From assembly GCA_963765815.1 (NCBI GenBank), contig CAVXXT010000005.1:150238-214237 (forward strand): a stretch of DNA of 64,000 nt, given 5' to 3'. The DNA is from an uncultured Actinomycetota bacterium (GTDB lineage: Bacteria > Actinomycetota > Actinomycetes > BP-191). Numbering within the stretch: position 1 is the stretch's first letter; each line of letters starts with the position of its first letter. The notes below the pieces were generated by a model, which ran no database searches, was not told the DNA's origin, and saw nothing but the letters and a program-made list of their open reading frames with translations. The translations under genes were made by a program, and so were the position numbers. Below, one piece after another: positions 1,522 to 17,366 of the stretch.

Positions 1522-2709
1522 GTGCAGATCGACTTCATGTCCTCCCAGCGGTCGAGCCTGGGCATCGAGGTCGAGCTCGAGGTGATCGACCGCCAGACGC
1601 GTGAGCTGTCCAACGACGGCGCCGAGATCCTTCGCGAGCTCGGCGGCGGTCGGCCTGAGGGCCACCCCAAGGCCAAGCACGAGCTGCTCGAGTCGACGAT
1701 CGAGATCATCACCGGCATCTGCACGACCGTGGACGAGGCCCGGCGCGATCTCGAGGGGACCCTCGCTGAGGTCAACGCGCTGGCTGACCCGCGCGGTCTC
1801 GCCGTCATGTGCTCCGGGACGCACCCGTTCTCGGACTGGAAGAAGCAGCAGATCACCCCCAACGAGCGCTACGCGCGGCTCGTCGAGGAGATGCAGTGGC
1901 TGGCCCGGCGGATGCAGATCTTCGGCATCCACGTGCATGTCGGCGTCCGCTCGCCGGACAAGGTCATCCCGATCGTCAACGCGCTGTCGACGTACATCCC
2001 GCACTTCCTGGCCCTGTCGGCGTCCAGCCCCTACTGGATGGGTCAGGACACCGGGCTGGCGTCGAGCCGGTCGAAGGTCTTCGAGCTGCTGCCCACCGCC
2101 GGGCTGCCGCACCAGCTCTCCGGGTGGAACGACTTCGAGGACTACATGTCCACGCTGATCAACGCGGACACCATCCACTCGGTGCGCGAGGTCTGGTGGG
2201 ACATCCGCCCGCACCCGGGCTTCGGCACCGTCGAGATCCGCATCTGCGACGGCATGCCGCGGATGAGCGAGATCGCCACCGTCGCCGCTCTCGGACAGTG
2301 CCTCGTCGAGCGCTTCAACACCCTGCTCGACCGCGGCTACACGCTGCCCGTGCAGAGCAACTGGATCCTGCGCGACAACAAGTGGCGGGCCGCCCGCTAC
2401 GGCCTCGGCGCGTCGATCATCCTCGACGACAAGGGCAACCAGCAGCCGCTGCTGGAGGCGATCCCCGAGCTGGTCGAGGAGCTCGCGCCGGTCGCCGACA
2501 AGCTCGGCTGCAGCGCCGAGCTGTCCCATGCGCTGACGATGATCGAGGAGGGGCCGAGCTACCTGCGCCAGCGGAGCATCGTCGATCAGGGCGGCTCGCT
2601 GCCCGACGTCGTCGACTCCCTCATCGAGGAGATGCGCACCGACCGCGCAACGCACCTTCCTGATGGACCTCGCTATGACGTGGCGGCGATGCGCCCGGTC
2701 GAGCTGTGA
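1522..2709 (+). CDS. Glutamate--cysteine ligase / YbdK-type carboxylate-amine ligase (GCS2)
   Basis: LGIEVELEVID, SGTHPF, IFGIHVHVG, LALSASSPYW, WWDIRPHPGFGTVEIRICD and NKWRAARYG. Confidence 0.93.
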   Translation: MQIDFMSSQRSSLGIEVELEVIDRQTRELSNDGAEILRELGGGRPEGHPKAKHELLESTIEIITGICTTVDEARRDLEGTLAEVNALADPRGLAVMCSGTHPFSDWKKQQITPNERYARLVEEMQWLARRMQIFGIHVHVGVRSPDKVIPIVNALSTYIPHFLALSASSPYWMGQDTGLASSRSKVFELLPTAGLPHQLSGWNDFEDYMSTLINADTIHSVREVWWDIRPHPGFGTVEIRICDGMPRMSEIATVAALGQCLVERFNTLLDRGYTLPVQSNWILRDNKWRAARYGLGASIILDDKGNQQPLLEAIPELVEELAPVADKLGCSAELSHALTMIEEGPSYLRQRSIVDQGGSLPDVVDSLIEEMRTDRATHLPDGPRYDVAAMRPVEL

Positions 2710-3878
2710 CGTCCTGGCTCGACGGATTCCTCGAGCGGAACGGCGCCGACCTGATCGCGCTCCGTCGCGACCTCCACGCGCATCCGGAGCTCGGCCGGCA
2801 GGAGACGCGCACGTCGGCCGTCGTCGCCGAGCGCCTCACCGCGGCCGGACTGTTGCCGCGCGGGCTCTCGGGCGGCACCGGGCTCCTGTGCGACGTCGGC
2901 GGCAGCGCCGGGCCGACTGTCGCGCTGCGTGCCGACCTCGACGCGCTGCCCATCCACGACCCCAAGGACGTGCCCTATCGCTCCACCAACGCCGGGGTCT
3001 GCCATGCGTGCGGTCATGACGTGCACACCGCGATGCTGGTCGGCGCAGGGCTCGCGCTCGCGGAGCTCGGCGCCGAGCTGCCCGGGCGGGTGCGGCTCGT
3101 CTTCCAGCATGCCGAGGAGCTGATGCCCGGCGGAGCCACCGACGCGATCGCCGACGGTGCGCTTGACGGCGTGTCCGCGATGTACGCGCTGCACTGCCAT
3201 CCCGGCTACGAGGTCGGGCAGGTCGGCGTCCGCGCCGGCGCGATCACCGCGGCGGCCGACATGGTCGAGGTTGTCCTGACCGGGCTCGGCGGGCACACGG
3301 CGCGGCCGCACGCGACCACCGACCTCGTGTACGCCGCGTCGCGGGTCGTCACCGATCTGCCGGCCGCGCTGAGCCGCCGGGTCGACCCGCGCCAGGGGAT
3401 GAGCATCGTGTTCGGCTCCATCTCCAGCGGTGTCGCGCCCAACGTCATCCCGCGGATCGCGACGATCCGCGGCACGGTCCGGGTCCTCGGCCACGAGGCG
3501 TGGGAGCAGGCGCCGAAGCTGGTCGAGGAGCTGGTCGCCGCGACCGTCGCGCCGCTCGGCGCCGACTACCAGCTGACCTACACGCGTGGCGTTCCGCCGG
3601 TCGTCAACGACGTACGCGCCACCGGTGTGATGGCGACCGCGATCACGCGCGCGCTCGGGCCCGACGCGGTGCAGCCGACCGAGCAGAGCCTCGGCGGCGA
3701 GGACTTCGCGTGGTACCTGCAGCAGGTGCCCGGCTCGATGGCCCGCCTCGGCGTCCGGCCGAAGCACGGCGCCGCTGACCTGCACGCAGCCGGCTTCGAC
3801 GTCGACGAGCGCTGCATCGCGGTCGGCGTGCGGGTCATGGCTGAGACCGCGCTCGAGGCGCTGCGCGTCTACTCCTGA
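2706..3878 (+). CDS. M20D family amidohydrolase
   Basis: RRDLHAHPELG, ALRADLDALP, HACGHDVH, FQHAEE, GGEDF and LH...FDVDE; start overlaps the upstream stop (GTGA). Confidence 0.93.
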   Translation: MTSWLDGFLERNGADLIALRRDLHAHPELGRQETRTSAVVAERLTAAGLLPRGLSGGTGLLCDVGGSAGPTVALRADLDALPIHDPKDVPYRSTNAGVCHACGHDVHTAMLVGAGLALAELGAELPGRVRLVFQHAEELMPGGATDAIADGALDGVSAMYALHCHPGYEVGQVGVRAGAITAAADMVEVVLTGLGGHTARPHATTDLVYAASRVVTDLPAALSRRVDPRQGMSIVFGSISSGVAPNVIPRIATIRGTVRVLGHEAWEQAPKLVEELVAATVAPLGADYQLTYTRGVPPVVNDVRATGVMATAITRALGPDAVQPTEQSLGGEDFAWYLQQVPGSMARLGVRPKHGAADLHAAGFDVDERCIAVGVRVMAETALEALRVYS

Positions 3879-5128
3879 CCGGCGACGGTCCCTGACGCGG
3901 CGGAGTCCTTTGCCCAGAGCGCGAACAGCCCGCGGTAGTGCGCGACGAACTGGTCGTGCTCGTGCTCGGGGAACGTCGACTTCACGGTGTCGACCAGGAG
4001 CCGGTCGAAGTCGTCCGAGGTGAAGTAGTCGTAGGCGACCTCATTCAGCGCCCCCAGCTTCGACGCGCAGAAGTCGCGGTACTTCGAGGCCTGGAAGTAG
4101 TCATCGGCCATCGAGCGGTACTTCGCGAGCTTGTCCTCGTACGACGCGTCGCTGTCCGCGACGTCGAACCACTTGCGGGTGTCGAGGTCGACCCGAGGCC
4201 TGCGCTTCGTCGCGGTGCAGAAGAGCGACCACTTCACGAGCGACGTCATCGCCCACGGGAAGTAGTAGTGCAGCGAGGTGATCGCGACGTCCGGGCAGGC
4301 GTTTGCGTAGTCGATCGGGTGCACCTGGCCGTCGCGGATCAGCGTCTCGCAGGAGTTGAACTCCCAGCGGAAGAACGCATTCACGATCTTGCCGATCGTC
4401 ACGACCTCGTCGCCCACCTCGGGGGAGAGGAAGTCGTGGGTCACCGAGTACCGGTCGTGCATCGGCCGGTCCGGCGCGAACTTCATCACCATCGTCTCGG
4501 CGCCGATCGACAGCGACCGGGCGAAGACGTCGAACCCCTCGACGCTGGCCTGCAGGTGCATCAGCCGCTGCCCGGACTCGTCGTACGCGCGGTGCAGCGC
4601 CTCGTCGTCGGCGATCCGCGTCACGCCGACCCACGCCCCGCCGTCGTACGGCTTCATGTAGAGCGGGTAGCCGACATGGTGAGCGACTTCGGCGAGATCG
4701 AACGGCTGGTTGTACTTCGCGGCGGTGTAGGGGAACCGCGGGTTGTCCAGCGGCTCCTTCTGCGGCACCAGCCAGGTGGTCGGCACCTTGAGCCCGAGCC
4801 GGATCATCGCGCAGTACGCCGCGTGCTTCTCCATGGCCTGGAACGTGAACGGGTTGTTGAGCAGGTAGACCTCGTCCATGAGGGCGACCTTCTTCAGCCA
4901 CTCCCGCGGCACGTGGTACCAGTAGGCCAGCCGGTCGACGACGAGGTCGTATCGACTCTTCTGCCGCAGGTCGAACGGCTCGATGGTGATGCGGCCGACG
5001 TCGTAGCGGTGGGTCGTGCTGCCGACCCGCAGTGCGGGGTCGAGGCGGCGGACCAGCGACTCGAAAGCCGTCGGCCAGTCCTCTTCCGTCCCGAGGAGCA
5101 GTCCGATCAGGTGAGTCGTGTCGGCCAT
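3869..5128 (-). CDS. ATP-grasp (RimK-like) amidoligase
   Basis: ATG at 5128 with GGAGG RBS; YLLNNPFTF, GYPLYMKPYDGGAWVGV and WEFNSCE...PIDYANACPD. Confidence 0.85.
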   Translation of the reverse strand: MADTTHLIGLLLGTEEDWPTAFESLVRRLDPALRVGSTTHRYDVGRITIEPFDLRQKSRYDLVVDRLAYWYHVPREWLKKVALMDEVYLLNNPFTFQAMEKHAAYCAMIRLGLKVPTTWLVPQKEPLDNPRFPYTAAKYNQPFDLAEVAHHVGYPLYMKPYDGGAWVGVTRIADDEALHRAYDESGQRLMHLQASVEGFDVFARSLSIGAETMVMKFAPDRPMHDRYSVTHDFLSPEVGDEVVTIGKIVNAFFRWEFNSCETLIRDGQVHPIDYANACPDVAITSLHYYFPWAMTSLVKWSLFCTATKRRPRVDLDTRKWFDVADSDASYEDKLAKYRSMADDYFQASKYRDFCASKLGALNEVAYDYFTSDDFDRLLVDTVKSTFPEHEHDQFVAHYRGLFALWAKDSAASGTVAGQE

Positions 5129-5268
5129 CCGCGGACCTCCGGTCTGTGGGCGAAGCGCGACCGAGGCTACCGAAGTGGGGCGATCCGGCGCGGAGCCGGT
5201 CAGACCGGGCAGCACATCCGCCGGATGCCGTACGGTCATCCGACGAGCATCGACGGACGGAGCGGACG

Positions 5269-8598: not shown

Positions 8599-11064
8599 AT
8601 GGCCACCCGTGCGCCCGCCGCCCGTCCCCGCGCGACCTCCTCCCGACCCACGGAGGACGCCCGTCCGGCGCGCGCGGCCGCCCCCCGGCGTACGCCGTCC
8701 ACCGGCGCCAGCCGTCCAGCGGCCCGGCGGCCGGCCGCCAAGAGCACGCCGCCGCCGCCCATGCTGGTCGTCGTCGTCCGGGCTATGGTCCGCGCGATTC
8801 GCGCGCTGTGGTCGATCCTCGCCCGAGCCCTCGGCTCGAGCGCCCGCACCGTCGGCGTGAGCGCCCGTGATCTCGACCCGGCCCACCGCCGCGACGGCGC
8901 CGGCCTTGGCGCGATCGCCGGTGCTCTCGTCACCGCGGTCGCCGTCTGGTGGCACGGCGGCGGCGCGGTCGGCTCGGTCGTCGAAGCGGTCGTCCGCGGT
9001 GCGGTCGGCTCCGCCGCCCCACTCGTCCCGCTGCTGCTCCTCGGCCTGACCTGGCGGTTCCTCCGCAGCCCCGCGGACCCGGAGAGCCGTGGGCGGCTGA
9101 TCGTGGGCTGGGCGTTCCTCGTCGGCGGCGGCCTCGGGCTGGTCCACCTCGCCCACGGCACGCCGGTCCCGCCCGACGGCGCGCGCGCGATGCGCGCCGC
9201 GGGTGGCCTCGTCGGCTTCCTCGCCTCCTCGCCGCTCGAGTCGGCTCTCACCGGCCTGCTTGCCGCGCCGCTCCTCGTGCTCGCCGCCGGCTTCGGCCTG
9301 CTGGTCGTCACCGCCACTCCGATCAACCAGGTCCCGACGCGGCTGGTCGCGCTCCGCGACCGAATCCTGCGTCGTACGCCGCCCGCCCCCGAGGTGATCG
9401 ACCTCACCGACGCCGAGGACGAGACGGCACTGCGCCGTCGCCCCGCCCGCCGCCGGGTCGCGGTCGCGGTCCCGCCGGAGGACGACGAGCCGGCGACCGA
9501 CCCGATGCCCGCGCCGGAGCCCCTGCCGCCCGCGGCGAGCGACCCGGTGCCGGTGCCGCGGATGGTCGAGCAGCTCGCGCTGACCTCCGCCGGCTACGTC
9601 CTGCCGCCGCCCGCGATGCTGCGCGCCGGCACGCCGCCGAAGGCGCGCACCGCCGCCAACGACACCGTGATCGCCGCGCTGTCCAACGTCCTCGACGAGT
9701 TCCAGGTCGACGCCCAGGTCACCGGCTTCACCCGCGGCCCGACCGTCACGCGCTACGAGGTCGAGCTCGGCCCGGCGGTGAAGGTCGCGCGGGTCATGCA
9801 GCTGAGCCACAACATCGCGTACGCCGTGAAGTCGCCGGACGTGCGCATCATCAGCCCGATCCCCGGCAAGAGCGCGATCGGCATCGAGATCCCCAACACC
9901 GACCGGGAGCTGGTGAGCCTCGGCGACGTGCTGCGCTCGAAGAAGGCGGCCGACGACCACCACCCGCTGCTCGTCGGGCTGGGCAAGGACATCGAAGGCG
10001 GGTACGTCGTCGCCAACCTGGCGAAGATGCCGCACATCCTCATCGCCGGCGCGACCGGCGCCGGCAAGAGCACCTGCATCAACACGCTGATCGCCAGCAT
10101 CCTCACGCGCGCAACGCCTGATGACGTGCGCATGCTGCTGGTCGACCCGAAGCGGGTCGAGCTCACCAACTACGCCGGCATCCCGCACCTCATCACGCCG
10201 ATCATCACCAACCCGAAGCGCGCCGCCGAGGCGCTGCAGTGGGTCGTGCGCGAGATGGAGATGCGCTACGAGGACCTTGCCGCTAATGGAGTGCGGCATG
10301 TCGACGACTTCAACCGCATGGTCCGCGCGGGAGCGATCAAGGCGCCGCCCGGCAGCGAGCGCGTCTACACGCCGTACCCCTACATCCTCGTCATCATCGA
10401 CGAGCTCGCCGACCTGATGATGGTCGCCCCGCGCGACGTCGAGGACGCGATCTGCCGGATCACCGCGATGGCCCGCGCCGTCGGCATCCACCTCGTGCTG
10501 GCGACCCAGCGGCCCAGCGTCGACGTCGTGACGGGCCTCATCAAGGCCAACGTCCCGTCGCGCCTCGCGTTCGCGACCGCGTCGCTCACCGACTCGCGCG
10601 TCATCCTCGACGGCCCCGGTGCGGAGAAGCTGGTCGGCCTCGGTGACGCGCTGTTCCTCCCGATGGGCGCCAGCAAGCCGCAGCGGATCCAGGGTGCGTA
10701 CGTCGGCGAGGACGAGATCGCCAAGGTCGTGAAGCACTGCATCAGCCAGGCGCAGCCCGTGTTCCGCGACGACGTGGTCGGCACCGGAGCGTCGCGCCCC
10801 GACGGCGCGGGCGGCGGGATGTCCGACGACCTCGGGGACGACGACGATCTTCTGCAGCAGGCGGTGGAGCTGGTCGTCACGACCCAGTTCGGGTCGACGT
10901 CGATGCTGCAGCGCAAGCTCAAGGTCGGGTTCGCCCGCGCCGGGCGGCTGATGGACCTGATGGAGCAGCGCGGGATCGTCGGCCCGTCGGAGGGCTCGAA
11001 GGCCCGCGACGTCCTGGTCATGCCCGACGAGCTCGAAGGCGTCCTGACAACGCTCCGGGGCTAG
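8599..11064 (+). CDS. ftsK: DNA translocase FtsK
   Basis: 4TM N-terminus, Walker A GATGAGKS, IIDELADLMM, LATQRPSVDV and gamma domain STSMLQRKLKVGFARAGRLMD. Confidence 0.97.
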   Translation: MATRAPAARPRATSSRPTEDARPARAAAPRRTPSTGASRPAARRPAAKSTPPPPMLVVVVRAMVRAIRALWSILARALGSSARTVGVSARDLDPAHRRDGAGLGAIAGALVTAVAVWWHGGGAVGSVVEAVVRGAVGSAAPLVPLLLLGLTWRFLRSPADPESRGRLIVGWAFLVGGGLGLVHLAHGTPVPPDGARAMRAAGGLVGFLASSPLESALTGLLAAPLLVLAAGFGLLVVTATPINQVPTRLVALRDRILRRTPPAPEVIDLTDAEDETALRRRPARRRVAVAVPPEDDEPATDPMPAPEPLPPAASDPVPVPRMVEQLALTSAGYVLPPPAMLRAGTPPKARTAANDTVIAALSNVLDEFQVDAQVTGFTRGPTVTRYEVELGPAVKVARVMQLSHNIAYAVKSPDVRIISPIPGKSAIGIEIPNTDRELVSLGDVLRSKKAADDHHPLLVGLGKDIEGGYVVANLAKMPHILIAGATGAGKSTCINTLIASILTRATPDDVRMLLVDPKRVELTNYAGIPHLITPIITNPKRAAEALQWVVREMEMRYEDLAANGVRHVDDFNRMVRAGAIKAPPGSERVYTPYPYILVIIDELADLMMVAPRDVEDAICRITAMARAVGIHLVLATQRPSVDVVTGLIKANVPSRLAFATASLTDSRVILDGPGAEKLVGLGDALFLPMGASKPQRIQGAYVGEDEIAKVVKHCISQAQPVFRDDVVGTGASRPDGAGGGMSDDLGDDDDLLQQAVELVVTTQFGSTSMLQRKLKVGFARAGRLMDLMEQRGIVGPSEGSKARDVLVMPDELEGVLTTLRG

Positions 11065-11705
11065 CTGAGCAGGCCGGCCCGCATCACGATCGCGACCATC
11101 TCCGACCGGTCGCCGGTGCCGAGGCGCCGACCCGCGCGAGCCAGCAGGCTCTTCACGGTCAGCGGGCTGATCTGGAGCTCCTTGGCGATCTCCTTGTTGC
11201 CGGCGCCGCTCGCGATCAGTCGCAGGATGTCCAGCTCGCGCTTGGTCAGCTCACCCGGCTCCGCCGTCGCGTTGCCGCGAAACCCCTGGGCCAGCAGGGC
11301 CGCGACCGCCCCGTCGGCGTAGATCTCGCCGGACAGGACGGTCCGCAGGCCGACGACGATGGTCTCCGGGGGAGAGGACTTCACCAGGTAGCCGGCCGCG
11401 CCGGCGGTGAACGCCGACCGGACCGTGAACGGGTCGTCGGCGGCGGACAGCACGGCGATCCGCTCCCAGCCCGCGTCGCGGAGCTCGGCGAGCAGCTCGA
11501 GCCCCGGACCGTCGGGGAGCCGCAGGTCCACGACGGCGAGCGCGCGAACGCCGTCCCGGGCGACCGCGCGCGCTTCGGCGATGGTGGTCGCCGTCGCGAC
11601 GTCGGTGATGCCGAGCTCGGCGAGAGCGAGCACGACCGCGCGGCTCATCAGCGGGTGGTCCTCGACCACCAGCGCCGTGGCAGCGTCGGACGCTGGATCT
11701 GACAT
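11061..11705 (-). CDS. NarL/LuxR family response regulator
   Basis: REC domain (VVEDHP, VVDLRLPDGPG, GYLVK) plus LuxR HTH (LTKRELDILRLIASGAGNKEIA...ISPLTVK). Confidence 0.93.
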   Translation of the reverse strand: MSDPASDAATALVVEDHPLMSRAVVLALAELGITDVATATTIAEARAVARDGVRALAVVDLRLPDGPGLELLAELRDAGWERIAVLSAADDPFTVRSAFTAGAAGYLVKSSPPETIVVGLRTVLSGEIYADGAVAALLAQGFRGNATAEPGELTKRELDILRLIASGAGNKEIAKELQISPLTVKSLLARAGRRLGTGDRSEMVAIVMRAGLLS

Positions 11706-11923
11706 GGTCCCCCCGGACTGGGCGTAGGGTGGGCCGGAGCACACCCACCAGCGGGAGTTTACGCCTCTGGTTGAGGGCCGAAAGGTGTCATGCGGCGGAG
11801 TGTCGTTAGGCCGAACAGCGTAGGCCAAAAATACCCGCGTGGGCCTCATGTCAGGCCCGTTCATGGCCGATCATTGCCAACGTGGTGTCCCTCTGCCCAG
11901 CGCCACCCTGCTCAGGAGGATCG

Positions 11924-13438
11924 GTGTCCCACTCCGCTCGGCTCGCGACGCGTCGTCTCGCCGTCGCCGTCGCGCTCGCTCTCTCGGCGTTCGCGCCTGG
12001 GCTGACCTCAGCCCGCGCCGCCGAGACGTCGGTCGCCGTCGTCTCCTTGCAGACCGGCGGCTCCGTCGCCGGAATCCAGGGCGTGCGCGTCCTCCGCAGC
12101 CATCCGGCCGTCGGCATCGTGATCGTCCGCGCCACCGACCGTGGGCTGGCCGCCCTCGCGTCGAGCCCGGCCGTGCACAGCATGAGCCCCGACCTCCCCG
12201 TCACCCTGACCGGCAAGGACTCCGCCGCCGCTGACGGCGTGCTGGCCTCCGCCTCGCTCGGGTCCGGAGCCGGCACCACCTCCGCAGGCAGCGGCGTGAC
12301 GGTCGCGCTCGTCGACACCGGCGTCACCGACACTCCCACCCTCTCGCGCAGCTCCGGCCGCATCGTCGACGGCGTCGACACCTCCGGTGAGAAGAAGTCC
12401 AAGGGTGCCCTCACCGACGGCTTCGGCCACGGCACCGCGATGGCCAACCTCATCGCCGGCGGCTCGTCCGGCTCGGGCTCCGCTGTCGGCGTCGCGCCCG
12501 CCGCGAAGATCCTCAACGTCAAGGTCGCCGGCGCTGACGGCACGACGTCGCTGTCGAAGGTCGTCGCCGGCCTCGACTACGTCGTCTCCTCGCGCGGCGA
12601 GAACTCCACCGACGTGCTCTCGATCTCGCTGGCGACCACGGTCGCCGGCGCCGAGTACCTCGCCACGCCCCTGACCGACGCGGTCGACCGGGTGCGCGAG
12701 GCGGGCATCGTGGTCGTCGCCGCGGTCGGCAACACCGCTGGCTCGGTCGGCGCGCCGGCCTATGACCCGTCCATCATCGCCGTCGGCGCCGCCGACACGA
12801 CCGGCACGGCCCCTGCGGTCGCCGGCTTCAGCGGGTCCGCCGTCGTCGCGGGCGCGCCCCGGCCCGACTTCGTCGCGCCCGGCGTCGGCGTCGTCACCGT
12901 CCTCCCGAAGGACTCGCAGCTCGCCAAGGCCAACAAGTCCGCGCAGCGCAGTGACGGCTTCTGGCGCAGCACCGGCACCAGCCAGGCGACCGCCATCGCG
13001 GCGGGCGCCGCGGCGATCACCGTCCAGCGCTTTCCGTCCGCCGGTGTGCAGGACGTCCGCTTCTCGCTGATGGCCGCCTCCGCGCCGATCGACGGCAACG
13101 CCTCCGGCGCCGGCGTCGTGCGCCTGCCGGCCACGCTGGTCACCGCGGCGCAGTACGCCGACGGCTGGCGTCAGGTCAGCGACGACGGCACGCTCGTCCA
13201 GAACCCGTGGACCTCCTCCTCGTGGAGCTCCTCCTCCTGGTCGTCGTCGAGCTGGTCCTCGTCGTCGTGGAGCTCGTCGTCCTGGTCGTCCTCCTCCTGG
13301 TCGTCGTCGAGCTGGTCCTCGTCGTCGTGGAGCTCGTCGTCCTGGTCGTCCTCGAGCTGGTCCTCGTCGTCCTGGAGCTCGTCGTCCTGGTCGTCCTCGA
13401 GCTGGTCTTCGGGATCCTGGTCGTTCGGCGTCCTCTGA
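11924..13438 (+). CDS. Secreted S8 (subtilisin-like) serine protease with C-terminal (WSSSS)n repeat
   Basis: AGGAGG RBS then GTG; signal peptide ending ARA; triad VALVDTG / GHGTAMA / GTSQA and oxyanion Asn in AAVGN; 14 W-x4 repeats at the C-terminus. Confidence 0.92.
   Translation: MSHSARLATRRLAVAVALALSAFAPGLTSARAAETSVAVVSLQTGGSVAGIQGVRVLRSHPAVGIVIVRATDRGLAALASSPAVHSMSPDLPVTLTGKDSAAADGVLASASLGSGAGTTSAGSGVTVALVDTGVTDTPTLSRSSGRIVDGVDTSGEKKSKGALTDGFGHGTAMANLIAGGSSGSGSAVGVAPAAKILNVKVAGADGTTSLSKVVAGLDYVVSSRGENSTDVLSISLATTVAGAEYLATPLTDAVDRVREAGIVVVAAVGNTAGSVGAPAYDPSIIAVGAADTTGTAPAVAGFSGSAVVAGAPRPDFVAPGVGVVTVLPKDSQLAKANKSAQRSDGFWRSTGTSQATAIAAGAAAITVQRFPSAGVQDVRFSLMAASAPIDGNASGAGVVRLPATLVTAAQYADGWRQVSDDGTLVQNPWTSSSWSSSSWSSSSWSSSSWSSSSWSSSSWSSSSWSSSSWSSSSWSSSSWSSSSWSSSSWSSSSWSSGSWSFGVL
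13208..13417 (+). repeat. In-frame 15-bp tandem repeat (14 units) encoding W-[ST]-S-[SG]-S
   Basis: TGG recurs every 15 bp; Ser codons vary among TCC, TCG, AGC and TCT. Confidence 0.95.
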
Positions 13439-14856
13439 TGGTGGAGCGCCCTCTGCGGCTCCCCGTCCTCATCGGCCTCGTCGCCGGTGGCACGGTCTGC
13501 GCCGCCAAGCTTCTCCCGTGGAACGGGCCGACCTGGTACGCGTTCGCGATCACGGCGTTCGCCGTCCTGCTCAGCGAGTCGCGCGTCGTCAACCTGCCGT
13601 TCGGCGGACAGCGCTGGAGCTTTGCCTGGGCGGAGATCCCGGTCGCCGCTGCGCTGCTCGTCCACCCCGGCAGCTGGATCGCCGCGTCGGTCGCTGTCGG
13701 CGTCCTGACCGCGCAGATGCTGCGTCGGCAGTCCACGGTCAAGCAGGTCTTCAACACCGTCCAGCTCGCGGCGGCGGCCTGCGTCGCCGTAGCGGTGGCT
13801 CAGGCGGTCGGCGGTGAGGTCGGCGTCGCGGCCGGCATGGCCACGTTCTGGACCGCCAACACGACGCTCGTCGCGGCGGCCATCTGGATCACCACTGAGC
13901 GCAAGTTCCTCGGCGTCTGCCTCGACGGCGCACCGCTGTCGGCGCTGCACTCGGCGACCAACGTCTCCCTCGCGATCCTCGGCGTCTGGATCGCGACCCT
14001 CAACCCGACCGGCCTGCTCGCCCTGCTCGCCCCCGCCGGGCTGCTGGCGTGGGCGCTGATCGACCAGATCCAGCGCACCGGCGAGACCCAGCTGCTTGCG
14101 GAGCTGGTCCGGACGCATGAGGCACGGGTCTCCGACACCACCGACGAGGTCGTCGGCGCGCTGCTCGAAGTGGGGTCGCGGCTGCTCCCGAACATCGCCG
14201 TAGAGCTGGTCGTGTTCACCGGCGACGGCCCGCACCTCTACCGCCGACAGAGCCGCGGCGGCATCGCCTGTCACCGCATGCGCGTCGGCGACTTCAGCGA
14301 GACCTGGGCACTGGCCGCGACCAGCGACGACCCGGTCAGCCGTACGACGGGCGACGAGGTCGAGGCGCTGCTGCGCGTCGGCCGGGCCGGCTCCCCGCTC
14401 GGGCTCATCCGGATGGTCACCACGGTCACCGGGGCCACCTTCAACCGCCAGGCGATGCAGGTGCTGCGGATGCTCAGCCGGCACGCCGAGGCGTCGCTGT
14501 CCGTCGACCGCGCGCTGCTCAGCCGCGACGACGCGATCGAGCGCGCCAACCAGGCGAGCGAGACCGTGCGCGCGCTGAGCGACCTCAGCGCCGACACGGG
14601 TCCCGCGCTGCGCACGCTGCGCGACTCCGCCGGCCGGCTCGCGGCGCTCGCGACCAACGCGCCGTCGGACCAGGTCGAGATCACCCGCCTCGTCGAGGAG
14701 CTGTACGCCGTCGAGCGCGCGGTGGCCTCGCTCTGCGGCGCCGTCACCCTGGCGACCGTCCCCGGCATCGAGCCGGACGCCGAGGACGGCGGCGTCGTCC
14801 TCTCCGTCGACCGCACCGAGGCGTGGACGAGCGTCGGGGTCCTGGAGAAGCGCTGA
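13438..14856 (+). CDS. Multi-pass membrane sensor-like protein with cytoplasmic GAF-like and coiled-coil regions
   Basis: ATG overlaps the protease stop (TGATG); about 6-7 hydrophobic segments with SFAWAEIP and KQVFN motifs; soluble C-terminus has no recognisable catalytic motif. Confidence 0.8.
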   Translation: MVERPLRLPVLIGLVAGGTVCAAKLLPWNGPTWYAFAITAFAVLLSESRVVNLPFGGQRWSFAWAEIPVAAALLVHPGSWIAASVAVGVLTAQMLRRQSTVKQVFNTVQLAAAACVAVAVAQAVGGEVGVAAGMATFWTANTTLVAAAIWITTERKFLGVCLDGAPLSALHSATNVSLAILGVWIATLNPTGLLALLAPAGLLAWALIDQIQRTGETQLLAELVRTHEARVSDTTDEVVGALLEVGSRLLPNIAVELVVFTGDGPHLYRRQSRGGIACHRMRVGDFSETWALAATSDDPVSRTTGDEVEALLRVGRAGSPLGLIRMVTTVTGATFNRQAMQVLRMLSRHAEASLSVDRALLSRDDAIERANQASETVRALSDLSADTGPALRTLRDSAGRLAALATNAPSDQVEITRLVEELYAVERAVASLCGAVTLATVPGIEPDAEDGGVVLSVDRTEAWTSVGVLEKR

Positions 14857-15935
14857 TGTCCTTCGGCGGCGGCCGGGCCGTTCTCTGGGTCGGCGGCGGC
14901 ACCTCCGCCTTCGCCCTCGCGACGGTCGGCGTCGGGACTGCGCTGCACGCCCTCGCCGACGGCAACCTCTACGTCGTCGTCGGCGGCACTGCGGGCCTGG
15001 CGGTCGTCGCCGGCTGCGTGGCGTGGCTCTGGCTGCGCAAGCCGATCATGTCGCTGGCGCAGGTGGTGGCTCTCGCGACCGCGTCGAGCTCGGGGGTCAC
15101 GACGGTCAAGCCGCACGCTCTCGGGTCGCGGCTCAGCGCGGTCTCCACCGCCGTCGACACGCTGCTCTGGCGGCTGCAGATGGCCAACCGCGAGGCGGAG
15201 CAGCAGAGCCGGTCGCTGCGCGAGACCACCGCCGGCATGCGCGAGCTGGTCACCGCGCTGGTGCACACCGAGGAGGTCGTGCGCGCCCAGCTCGCCGCTG
15301 ACATCCACGACACCGTCGCTCAGTCGCTGGCCATCGCCAAGCGGCAGGTCAACTCCTCCGACGACGTGCCCCGGTCACTCGCCGACGCCGTCGATGACGC
15401 CGAGGAGCAGGTGCGGGCGGTGATCTCCCGCACCCGCCCGGTCATGCTCGAAGGTGGCGACCTCGCCGCCGCGGTGCACGCGCTCTGCGACGACGTGCAC
15501 AACCGCTACGGCTTGGTCATCCACCTGGTCGGCTGGCCCGACGCCGACCACGCCATGCCGGTCTCGGTCGCGACGGTGTGCTACCGGTTCGTCCAGGAAG
15601 CCATCATGAACGTGACCAAGCACGCCAGCACCGACGAGTGCTTCGTCGCGCTCGGCGTCGAGGGGCGCACGATCACGCTCTCCGTCACCGACCACGGCGG
15701 CGGCTTCGACCCGAGCCTGGTCAAGAGCGCGGGCGGCCGGCACGTCGGCCTGCACCTGCTGTCCGAGCGTGCGCGGCTGATGGGCGGCAGCGTCCAGGTC
15801 TGCTCCGCTCCCGGCGAGAGCACCGTCCTGCGGCTGCGGCTGCCGGTGCCCGAGCGGCGGGTCAACCCCAGCCGTGCGGCAAACGGCCCAGAGGTGCTGG
15901 GCCAGCGGACACGTCCGAGCTCTGCGAACGCATAG
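14856..15935 (+). CDS. Sensor histidine kinase (HisKA_3 + HATPase_c)
   Basis: TGATG coupling; 2 TM segments with almost no extracellular loop; H-box ADIHDTVAQSL, N-box QEAIMNVTKHA, G boxes DHGGGFD and GRHVGL. Confidence 0.92.
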   Translation: MSFGGGRAVLWVGGGTSAFALATVGVGTALHALADGNLYVVVGGTAGLAVVAGCVAWLWLRKPIMSLAQVVALATASSSGVTTVKPHALGSRLSAVSTAVDTLLWRLQMANREAEQQSRSLRETTAGMRELVTALVHTEEVVRAQLAADIHDTVAQSLAIAKRQVNSSDDVPRSLADAVDDAEEQVRAVISRTRPVMLEGGDLAAAVHALCDDVHNRYGLVIHLVGWPDADHAMPVSVATVCYRFVQEAIMNVTKHASTDECFVALGVEGRTITLSVTDHGGGFDPSLVKSAGGRHVGLHLLSERARLMGGSVQVCSAPGESTVLRLRLPVPERRVNPSRAANGPEVLGQRTRPSSANA

Positions 15936-16020
15936 GCCCGATTGCGGCAAACATCGGTCGATACCGCCGCGGCATGCGACGACATCTCCTGCAGGCACCA
16001 CGCGACAGGGGAGAGACCGC

Positions 16021-16149
16021 ATGAACGAGTCCGAGCACGAGGTCTTCGCGCTGATGCGGGCCGGCGTACCGCTGACGCTGCTGATCGACCTGGCCCTCGG
16101 CGTACCCGAGCTGCCGCTCGACGACGCCGAGCTGTCGTGGGCCTCCTAG
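16021..16149 (+). CDS. Small hypothetical protein (42 aa)
   Basis: GGGGAGAG RBS before ATG 16021; MNESEHEVFALMRAGVPLTLLIDLALG; high-GC3 codon usage. Confidence 0.55.
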   Translation: MNESEHEVFALMRAGVPLTLLIDLALGVPELPLDDAELSWAS

Positions 16150-16523
16150 ACCAGCCCTACGGCGCGATCGACCTGCACGGTCTCGCCGCCGCCGAGCTCG
16201 ACTGCGTCGGCGCGCTGCTGTTCGGGACGTGGCAGGAGATCGGCCACCACACGCTCACGCTCGCGGGGACGCAGTTCGTGGACCGCGACCGGGGACTCCT
16301 GTACGACGCGATCGCCGGGCTGCGCCTGCAGCGGCCGCGGATCGCTCTCACCGCGCTGCTCAACTCGGTGCCGGACCACTTGGTGCCCGCCATCTCCGTC
16401 GTCCTCCGCTGGAGTGACCGCGCCGGCTTCGAGCCGACGGCGGAGGTCTTCTGCGCCGCTCGCGACGCGCTCTGCCACGACCGCGTAAACGTCTCTTTGC
16501 CGACTTACCCGGGCACCGCCTAG
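16137..16523 (+). CDS. Hypothetical protein
   Basis: 3' part of ORF 15942..16523; GTG at 16137 overlaps the preceding small ORF; typical codon bias. Confidence 0.55.
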   Translation: MGLLDQPYGAIDLHGLAAAELDCVGALLFGTWQEIGHHTLTLAGTQFVDRDRGLLYDAIAGLRLQRPRIALTALLNSVPDHLVPAISVVLRWSDRAGFEPTAEVFCAARDALCHDRVNVSLPTYPGTA

Positions 16524-16585
16524 ACTCGCATGAGCCGGTGGCCGCGGACTTCCCCCGGCGGCGGCCGACTGGCGGAGGTGTGCGC

Positions 16586-17366
16586 ATGAGTGTCGGCGAG
16601 ACGCTCGTCGCTGCCCGCGAGCAGGCCAGGCTGACCGTCGAGGACGTCAGCCGCGCCACCCGCATCCGCGGCGTCCTGATCCGCGAGATCGAGGCCGATG
16701 GCGTCGAGACCAGCGGCGGCCCGGTCTACGCCCGTGGGCACATCCGGGCGATCGCCACCCACCTCGGCCTCGACCCGCAGCCTCTGCTCGACGAGTTCGA
16801 CCGGCTGCACGGCAGCGACCACGGGCCGGGCGCCCGGCAGATCTTCGAGCGGGAGGTCCTCGCCGAGCCGGCCCGGACCGGCCCGAACTGGACCGCCGCC
16901 ATGGCGGTCGCGGCCGCGGTGCTGCTCGTCATCGCCGTGGTCGCCCTGTTCAACGGTCGCTCCCCGGCCAGCCCGGTCGCCGAGGGCGTGCCGCAGACCG
17001 CCACCTCGACCGAGCCGTCCACCACGCCGGCGACCAGCGCGCCGGCGCTGCAGCTCCACGCCCGGCCCGGACCTCGCGCTCGCGCCCCAGGGCGGGGTCT
17101 TCATCCGGGTGCGGATCCCCGGCGAGCAGCGCAGCTACGTCCTGGTCCGCGAAGGCGGGCCGAAGGGGCCGAAGGTCTTCGAGGGCACGCTGACCACCGG
17201 CGCGGTCAAGGACTTCCGCTCCGACAAGCCGCTCTACCTGGTGCTCGGCAACGCCGGCGCCGTCACCCTGGTCGTCAACGGCCGCGACCTCGGCTCGCCC
17301 GGCGGCACCGGTCAGGTGGTCCGGACGACGTTCGGCCCCGGCGACCCGGCCGGCGCCGCGGGCTGA
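16586..17366 (+). pseudogene. rodZ: RodZ-like HTH-TM-DUF4115 protein, frameshifted as sequenced near 17050
   Basis: The HTH (VGETLVAAREQARLTVEDVSRATRIR, YARGHIR) and TM lie in one frame; the C-terminal [15 protein letters not shown] domain lies in another (ORF 16698..17366); located upstream of rimO. Confidence 0.82.

Follow-up and report, generated by a model that had tools for sequence, protein, structure and literature searches.

The stretch of DNA studied here (the window, 64,000 nucleotides, to whose positions all coordinates refer) has a GC content of ~72% and belongs to an actinobacterial contig (G000:C5), whose nearest named relatives are metagenome-assembled genomes labelled Mycobacteriales, Frankiales, Frankiaceae and Acidothermaceae. 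Within it, ftsK (8599–11064) is followed by a block of four genes and two small open reading frames (ORFs), and then by rodZ/rimO. The four genes encode a NarL/LuxR-type response regulator, a secreted S8 subtilase ending in a tryptophan (Trp, W) repeat, a stand-alone membrane sensor and a histidine kinase. A first-pass annotation, made from the letters and a list of ORFs alone, had read this block as a candidate peptide-signaling island. Here we show that S8 subtilases with such a Trp tail are almost always encoded directly before one family of membrane sensors, whatever the output of the sensor, and that the island is one variant of this much wider two-gene module rather than a stand-alone oddity.

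The regulator gene lies on the minus strand (11061–11705, within an ORF of 11061–11864; likely start ATG at 11705, MSDPAS...). A 218-bp intergenic region (11706–11923), the presumed promoter and operator, separates it from the genes on the plus strand for the subtilase (11924–13438), the sensor (13438–14856) and the kinase (14856–15935). The block is an insertion: four relatives (G001, G003, G006 and G011) lack the cassette and have ftsK and rodZ 0.1–0.9 kb apart. Among the relatives compared, only G002 shares the insert with the window genome. The stops of ftsK and of the regulator gene overlap tail to tail by 4 bp (11061–11064), so that the insert abuts ftsK with no spacer. Several features of the first-pass annotation are borne out here, namely the interruption of ftsK-rodZ-rimO, the divergent NarL/LuxR regulator, whose REC (receiver) and GerE domains are matched on the minus strand, and the two TGATG stop/start overlaps, which can be read in the sequence between subtilase and sensor (13436–13440) and between sensor and kinase (14854–14858).

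The subtilase matches Peptidase_S8 (Pfam PF00082) with 113.8 bits against a gathering cut-off of 21.8. Residues D145, H183, S367 and N284 are invariant among 20 aligned S8 homologues, and the protein is thus, judging from its sequence, a peptidase S8 with a catalytic Asp/His/Ser triad and an oxyanion Asn. Its ORF extends from 11882 to 13438; the probable start is the GTG at 11924, preceded by AGGAGG at 11915–11920, and a GTG at 11882 is the alternative. In order, the predicted parts are a signal peptide, an I9-like propeptide, the catalytic domain and a C-terminal tail that is disordered. The hydropathy profile contains a single hydrophobic segment, N-terminal and signal-like, and none at the C-terminus. 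An AlphaFold2 model (mean predicted local distance difference test score, pLDDT, of 74) is confident for the propeptide and the catalytic core, while the tail (residues 431–518) has pLDDT <50 and no secondary structure. The best-scoring named subfamily is that of the mycosins (TIGR03921), actinobacterial envelope-associated subtilases linked to type VII secretion, although the score of 126.3 bits is far below the cut-off of 278.75. In contrast to the mycosins, the window protein has no C-terminal transmembrane (TM) anchor and ends in a Ser/Trp repeat.

This repeat, of the form (W-x4)n, occupies 13208–13435 on the plus strand, with 15 Trp residues at a period of five (13208–13420) followed by SFGVL and the stop, in agreement with the earlier description of a W-repeat subtilisin. 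Its units are mostly WSSSS, and it ends in ...WSSGSWSFGVL. A six-frame scan of the 3.36-Mb genome found three ORFs with at least six Trp at period 5, and a fourth match was a 70-codon ORF with 4 Trp. Since all three arrays are C-termini of S8 proteins, the Trp period is not due to chance. A pentapeptide-repeat beta-helix was rejected as an explanation of the tail, as only Peptidase_S8 was matched in Pfam (E ≤ 0.01) and the tail is predicted to be disordered. A WXG or type VII secretion signal would suit the many units that read WxG, but the WSSSS of the window and the common WSANS and WSASS do not have this form.

In all S8 homologues from the cassettes, Trp recurs at period 5, and the residues in between are mostly small. 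The units are highly uniform within one protein and differ between lineages (WSASS, WSANS, WSGSS, WSAGS, WSAAT, WSTRS, WSAKS, WSAMS, WGASS, WGANA, WGAGA, WGAST, WGASR, WSARM, WDARM) and between paralogous modules; those of the three S8 paralogues in the window genome are WSSSS, WTGGT and WxGHS.WYxSx. Copy number ranges from 4 to 18 Trp in the sensor-centered sample described below and reaches 35 in metagenomes. Near-identical sensors (L042, L035 and L037) are paired with tails of 8, 11 or 15 copies, and closely related sensors are found beside different units (WAANS in L064 and WGANA in L085; WGAGA in L086 and WGASS in L096).

The sensor, 472 amino acids long, is predicted to consist of a MASE9-like polytopic TM domain (residues ~1–230), a GAF-like domain (~235–330), a helical hairpin (337–440) and a disordered C-terminus. 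The match to MASE9 (Pfam PF20972) is marginal, with 23.6 bits for the whole protein and 25.3 bits for residues 1–234 alone against a gathering cut-off of 24.3, and covers profile positions 55–151 of 203. Four of ten long relatives scanned reach 24.8–26.6 bits, but only one of 40 partner sensors from metagenomes matches at E ≤ 1e-4. In the AlphaFold2 model (pLDDT 76) the membrane domain is helical; an alpha/beta domain and a long helical hairpin follow, and the C-terminus is disordered. In Foldseek comparisons the alpha/beta domain resembles GAF domains (target TM-scores 0.5–0.6, E ~1e-3 to 1e-2). A Pfam scan of the window sensor at E ≤ 0.01 gave no GAF match, and relatives do have Pfam GAF matches at the equivalent place.

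As described in the available part of the report by Galperin and Chou (bioRxiv 10.1101/2021.11.05.467447), MASE9 is a promiscuous polytopic membrane sensor without sizeable extracytoplasmic loops, which heads HD-GYP, GGDEF-EAL and kinase outputs and for which ligand binding within the membrane is proposed. The same part of the report describes the only characterized member as uninformative and names neither a ligand nor a partner protease. The TM domain of the window is similarly polytopic, and its relatives are likewise fused to GGDEF-EAL, HD-GYP and kinase domains, and also to PP2C outputs; it differs in being found on separate proteins too, where a GAF-like and a helical domain accompany it, beside a protease gene. 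A profile of 19 family members detected 2187 related proteins at E ≤ 1e-3. Of the ten long relatives scanned, eight have HisKA + HATPase_c or HisKA farther along the chain, preceded in seven cases by PAS, and the other two have GGDEF + EAL. Judging from these architectures, the window sensor corresponds to the sensory part of proteins that normally include an output domain, here encoded by itself. The earlier suggestions that the TM protein lacks an output domain, and that its TM domain would be found fused to histidine kinase, GGDEF and HD-GYP outputs elsewhere, thus both hold: the window protein has no output domain behind its TM and GAF-like domains, and TM + GAF relatives carry histidine kinase, GGDEF-EAL and HD-GYP domains.

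Three further observations concern the sensor. Its membrane domain (model m3975dda5ebd5) resembles RibU, the riboflavin-binding ECF (energy-coupling factor) S-component (5kbw_A; target TM-score 0.62 over 168 columns, E 7e-3), a likeness that we treat as a lead only; the MASE9-like fold could perhaps accommodate a small ligand within the membrane. The disordered C-terminus (14776–14856) contains a conserved WTTTGVL-like (WTxxGxL) motif at the overlap with the kinase start, in which W463, T464 and G467 are invariant and L469 is nearly so among 19 sequences. We also considered whether the C-terminal helices (ELYAVERAVASL) could be a degenerate dimerization and histidine phosphotransfer domain, and rejected this: hhalign against the kinase gave a probability of 0.3%, and Pfam at E ≤ 10 returned nothing relevant.

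The first-pass annotation had proposed to test whether the neighbors of Trp-tailed S8 proteases share this TM domain, and the linkage was strongly positive in three independent samples. A sensor-centered sample was obtained by scanning genome contigs for relatives of the sensor, of which the best 80 of 163 were kept. An ORF with a tail of Trp at period 5 lies directly upstream in 65 of these 80 loci, 14 have none, and one has too little upstream sequence; in most of the 65 the stop of the tail ORF overlaps or abuts the start of the sensor gene (offset −3 or 0). An S8-centered sample was drawn from metagenomes with patterns from the catalytic domain only, and was thus not selected for the sensor (best 80 of 415 relatives). 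The 3′ end of the S8 gene is complete in 78 of the 80, and all 78 encode a tail of at least 4 Trp. Sensors were sought in these loci with a broadened hidden Markov model (HMM), since a first, narrow HMM built from the 19-member sensor alignment alone had missed divergent TM domains such as that of L179. A sensor gene follows directly on the same strand in 61 of the 78 loci; it is farther along the same strand in three, upstream on the same strand in one and divergent in one, while seven loci are too short to judge.

The linkage extends to paralogues and to other families. In the genome of the window, which has five genes with MASE9-like TM domains and about eight S8 loci, each of the three genes for Trp-tailed S8 proteins precedes a MASE9-like sensor gene of the same orientation. 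The outputs of these sensors differ: none, with a separate HisKA_3 kinase (the window); GAF-PAS-HisKA-HATPase_c; and GAF-SpoIIE-HATPase_c_2. The five other S8 loci have no tail, and none adjoins a MASE9-like gene. In five genomes of five other families, all 13 arrays examined are S8 C-termini, with a MASE9-like ORF after each; another 68 matches to the pattern in the same genomes lie outside these 13, which are thus not a full census. The domain scan covered 12 of the 13 sensors, with L175 (a 486-residue ORF) outside it, and found eight GGDEF-EAL proteins, three with PAS-HisKA-HATPase_c and one with GGDEF + HD_5. Among 40 complete downstream sensors from the metagenomes, 23 carry GGDEF (21 of them also EAL), one carries HisKA-HATPase_c, and 16 have no output domain.

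A DNA pattern of six Trp codons at a spacing of 15 bases occurs in 282 of 401 genomes of the class, a count that serves as a pointer only, as the controls with reversed patterns were not zero and nine unpublished genomes are included. Of 30 loci returned by this pattern, 17 have an in-frame tail on an S8 protein, and the TM domain is directly downstream in 14 of the 17 (13 of 16 without L110, from the unpublished genome G266). L179 encodes a GAF-GGDEF-EAL protein downstream, with the TM domain seen only by the broadened HMM, and in L180 the sensor is divergently upstream of the S8 gene. When the five genomes were searched from the sensor side, a tail was present in the preceding 900 bp for 12 (11 distinct) of the 20 MASE9-like hits. 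One pair of S8 tail and sensor (G123:C1:4086-7043) is identical to another (G123:C2:101182-104139), a recent or assembly duplicate that was counted once among the distinct hits. Two unusual arrangements were also seen. The metagenome locus L237 has two tandem MASE9-like sensor ORFs (2101–3867 and 3827–5209, plus strand) behind a single Trp-tailed S8 gene, and a 959-residue S8-linked sensor (L176:1272-4148, minus strand; G084:C9) contains two MASE9-like domains, with GGDEF after the first and HD_5, of the HD-GYP type, after the second.

The sensor, kinase and regulator recur together. A protein search found the sensor in every other genome of the same family (16 of 16) and, outside that family, in 8 of 24 genomes (the unpublished G022 and G038 are part of this tally). 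In the sensor-centered sample the kinase is downstream of the sensor in 78 of 80 loci, and the regulator is divergently upstream in 68, the other 12 loci ending before the regulator position. In most of 20 loci inspected for this, the kinase gene begins within the end of the sensor gene or immediately after it. The four genes thus recur as a cassette in related loci, in line with the view that the island is a conserved unit. In a quick maximum-likelihood tree of 81 sensors (L101 was left out for length), the window sensor and that of G002 form a long separate branch.

A K..FN motif in the membrane domain (K102 and N106 in the window sensor) has no exceptions in the 19-member alignment. Among the 40 metagenome sensors its Lys never varies and its Asn almost never does. 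The motif is present in all 65 S8-linked sensors of the split type and in all seven S8-less split-type sensors that are scattered over the tree. It is found in none of eight members of one deep, old S8-less clade, where six different replacements occur, and is also missing from the fifth MASE9-like sensor of the window genome, which has no S8 partner. This pattern hints at co-evolution of protease and sensor, but is suggestive only. As a strict marker of S8 linkage K..FN was rejected, as it holds in the split family and fails in fused sensors.

The kinase matches HisKA_3 (26.1 bits against 24) and HATPase_c (47.1 against 26.4), and H151, in an ...HDTVAQ... box, is invariant in 19 homologues. 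Its hydrophobic segments (residues 8–26 and 40–58) are ~13 residues apart, in agreement with the two TM segments and nearly absent sensory loop noted in the first reading. The Pfam scan found no other domain N-terminal of HisKA_3. With two TM segments, a very short linker and no other input domain, the kinase is, by its predicted architecture, a sensor-less one of the intramembrane-sensing type. NCBIfam LiaS scores 59.8 bits against it, with a cut-off of 450. The regulator matches Response_reg (60.9 bits) and GerE (53.7 bits), the latter a helix-turn-helix domain; its best NCBIfam match, NarL, scores 104.6 bits, below the cut-off of 250, so that no named equivalog is assigned. By their domains and the invariant His box, kinase and regulator are predicted to form a HisKA_3/NarL-type two-component system. 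A predicted complex of sensor and kinase scored 0.08 against a mark of 0.32, which counts neither for nor against binding. A consensus scan of 10900–16700 gave no sigma-70-like promoters and no terminators, a look-up of sequencing runs listed none for the locus, and comparison of the intergenic region between regulator and S8 genes with its G002 orthologue showed short conserved blocks only and no clear operator; autoregulation through this shared 218-bp region is plausible but unsupported.

The two-component half of the island is reminiscent of LiaFSR and BceS, in which a HisKA_3 kinase with two TM segments and a minimal loop works with a NarL-type regulator and an adjacent membrane protein is the presumed input. 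However, the accessory protein in the window is a MASE9-like + GAF protein rather than a LiaF-like inhibitor or an ABC transporter, and a secreted protease belongs to the unit.

On balance, we favor the view that the island is a split, two-component form of the two-gene module, in which the Trp-tailed subtilase is the extracytoplasmic input partner of the MASE9-like + GAF sensor. The sensor has no extracytoplasmic domain of its own; the protease would supply this input through its Trp tail, and the tail would be what the membrane domain of the sensor recognizes. In the version that we prefer, the protease, which has no anchor, would be kept docked on the sensor by its tail, acting as a multivalent tethered ligand, and the state of the sensor would be set by occupancy of the tail or by its proteolytic trimming. 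The signal would then pass through the GAF and helical regions to the kinase and on to the NarL-type regulator, which would act on the shared promoter region. A tethered multivalent tail is favored because the protease is anchor-less, the genes overlap, and only Trp and small residues are constrained.

Several observations weigh against this interpretation. The S8 gene has been lost at least seven times from otherwise intact sensor-kinase-regulator cassettes, as judged from the quick tree, so that the core functions, or is at least maintained, where no S8 gene is adjacent. The window genome itself contains a second cassette (G000:C3:361284-362960; L013:7282-8739, minus strand), which belongs to the main clade, has a sensor 42% identical to that of the window and has no S8 gene; the window protease might serve this cassette as well, or the second copy might work without a protease. 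Among the S8-centered loci, five with at least 1.5 kb of downstream sequence have no sensor (5 of 71 determinable), and one pattern locus, L178, has a convergent UPF0182 gene instead. Conversely, 8 of the 20 MASE9-like hits in the five genomes have no tail within 900 bp upstream; four of these eight fused sensors keep K..FN, so that the motif does not strictly track S8, and its loss in the deep clade is one evolutionary event. Finally, the repeat unit differs between close relatives, which fits loose recognition or none. A specific autoinducer in particular is made less likely by the losses of S8, by the variation of repeat unit and copy number among close relatives, and by the constraint of the tail to Trp and small residues only.

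These last points bear on the model of the first-pass annotation, a special case of the tail acting as ligand, in which the protease cuts its own tail into diffusible Trp pentapeptides that autoinduce the sensor through kinase and regulator. Much about the tail would suit such a precursor, since it is disordered, and hence accessible, is attached to a protease whose catalytic triad is intact, and consists of units that are uniform within a protein and distinct between lineages and paralogous modules; the receptor is also polytopic. There are precedents for such elements. The receptors of Agr and ComX/ComP are polytopic, S8 proteases release the Phr pentapeptides, and yeast alpha-factor is made as a multi-copy precursor cut by the S8 protease Kex2. 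As in Agr, ComX/ComP and Phr-Rap, where short Trp-containing or pentapeptide signals are used, peptide source, protease and polytopic sensor would be co-encoded in the window. Yet here the protease itself bears the putative signal, as a tandem repeat, the receptor belongs to another domain family, and most partner sensors control cyclic di-GMP (c-di-GMP) rather than transcription, so that an autoinducing loop would not be general. Cleavage of the tail is putative. In addition, different units, in 8–15 copies, beside very similar sensors are unexpected for a specific pheromone-receptor pair, and the stop/start overlap suggests one-to-one co-production, as for complexes. We therefore regard released pentapeptides as unlikely. 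If information flowed the other way, the membrane protein would be a docking platform or regulator of the protease that replaces the C-terminal TM anchor of mycosins, and its cytoplasmic domains would control retention, activation or release. The subtilase is indeed mycosin-like without a C-terminal hydrophobic segment, the stop/start overlap is widespread, and the TM domain of the partner is constant while its cytoplasmic domains vary. We know of no mechanism, however, by which such outputs act outward on a secreted enzyme. Furthermore, GAF-GGDEF-EAL, HisKA-HATPase and PP2C behind a TM domain are typical sensor-to-output layouts, and MASE9 is defined as a sensor domain (bioRxiv 10.1101/2021.11.05.467447), which makes this reversal rather improbable.

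Less likely still is an ordinary envelope or nutrient signaling operon that co-expresses a protease effector, with the Trp tail as a generic cell-wall or substrate-binding appendage that has no role in signaling. Two-component systems do occur beside secreted proteases, as in MprAB-PepD and CssRS-HtrA. The tail characterizes this S8 subfamily as a whole, being present in every complete metagenome protein and in three paralogues of the window genome, and the cassettes persist where S8 is absent. This explanation nevertheless leaves unexplained why one protease subfamily lies upstream of one TM family whatever the output. Sensors with GGDEF-EAL or PP2C outputs have no DNA-binding domain with which to regulate the protease gene, and no other S8 locus of the window genome shows the linkage.

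Beyond the island, it is conceivable, though we would put it somewhat short of probable, that a protease-borne Trp repeat, tethered or released, is the natural ligand of this MASE-type domain and is read inside or at the membrane. Such a ligand would wire extracellular proteolysis to c-di-GMP, two-component or PP2C partner-switching outputs across many actinobacterial families, with paralogous modules insulated from each other by their repeat units. The parts of the system belong to known families, and the pairing at the system level appears undescribed; we found no description of a Trp-tailed S8 protein paired with a MASE9-like sensor in the literature, as judged by titles and abstracts. The protease-sensor pair looks like a widespread actinobacterial signaling module. 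Many bacterial c-di-GMP enzymes and kinases begin with a MASE-type membrane domain, and a near-obligate, translationally coupled protease with an easily synthesized repeat is a concrete and testable candidate input for the MASE9-like sensors. As the pairing spans several outputs, a single mechanism could underlie the way in which many actinobacteria tie decisions on lifestyle to extracellular proteolysis or to the state of the envelope.

Downstream of the kinase lie two small ORFs on the plus strand, both with a coding-like codon-position GC. The first (sORF1, 16021–16149, 42 residues) has a GC content at third codon positions (GC3) of 0.95 after frame correction, is 48% identical over 44 residues to the orthologous locus of G002, and is probably a real gene. 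The second (sORF2, 16137–16523, 128 residues, probable start GTG at 16137) overlaps the stop of sORF1; read on the plus strand, its three codon positions have a GC of 0.73/0.48/0.94, while an antisense ORF shows the mirror pattern. Pfam and NCBIfam scans gave no family match for either, and no homologue of sORF2 was found in the fetched related loci or in the window genome. Neither ORF occurs in the cassettes of the main clade.

The Trp/Ser repeat also affects gene calling, since other frames are open across it (13171–14484 on the minus strand and 13207–13437 on the plus strand), where they would encode an acidic DDQE repeat and LVVLELV, respectively. GC3 is 0.93–0.96 in the regulator, S8, sensor and kinase genes, which marks the long ORFs that cross the repeat in other frames as artefacts. 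In relatives, open frames of 633–1657 residues run across the repeat, and the start of the sensor gene behind it is easily miscalled, a point of general relevance for annotation wherever frames stay open through such a repeat. For example, in one 686-residue protein (P0011) the profile match begins at residue 226, leaving ~225 extra N-terminal residues.

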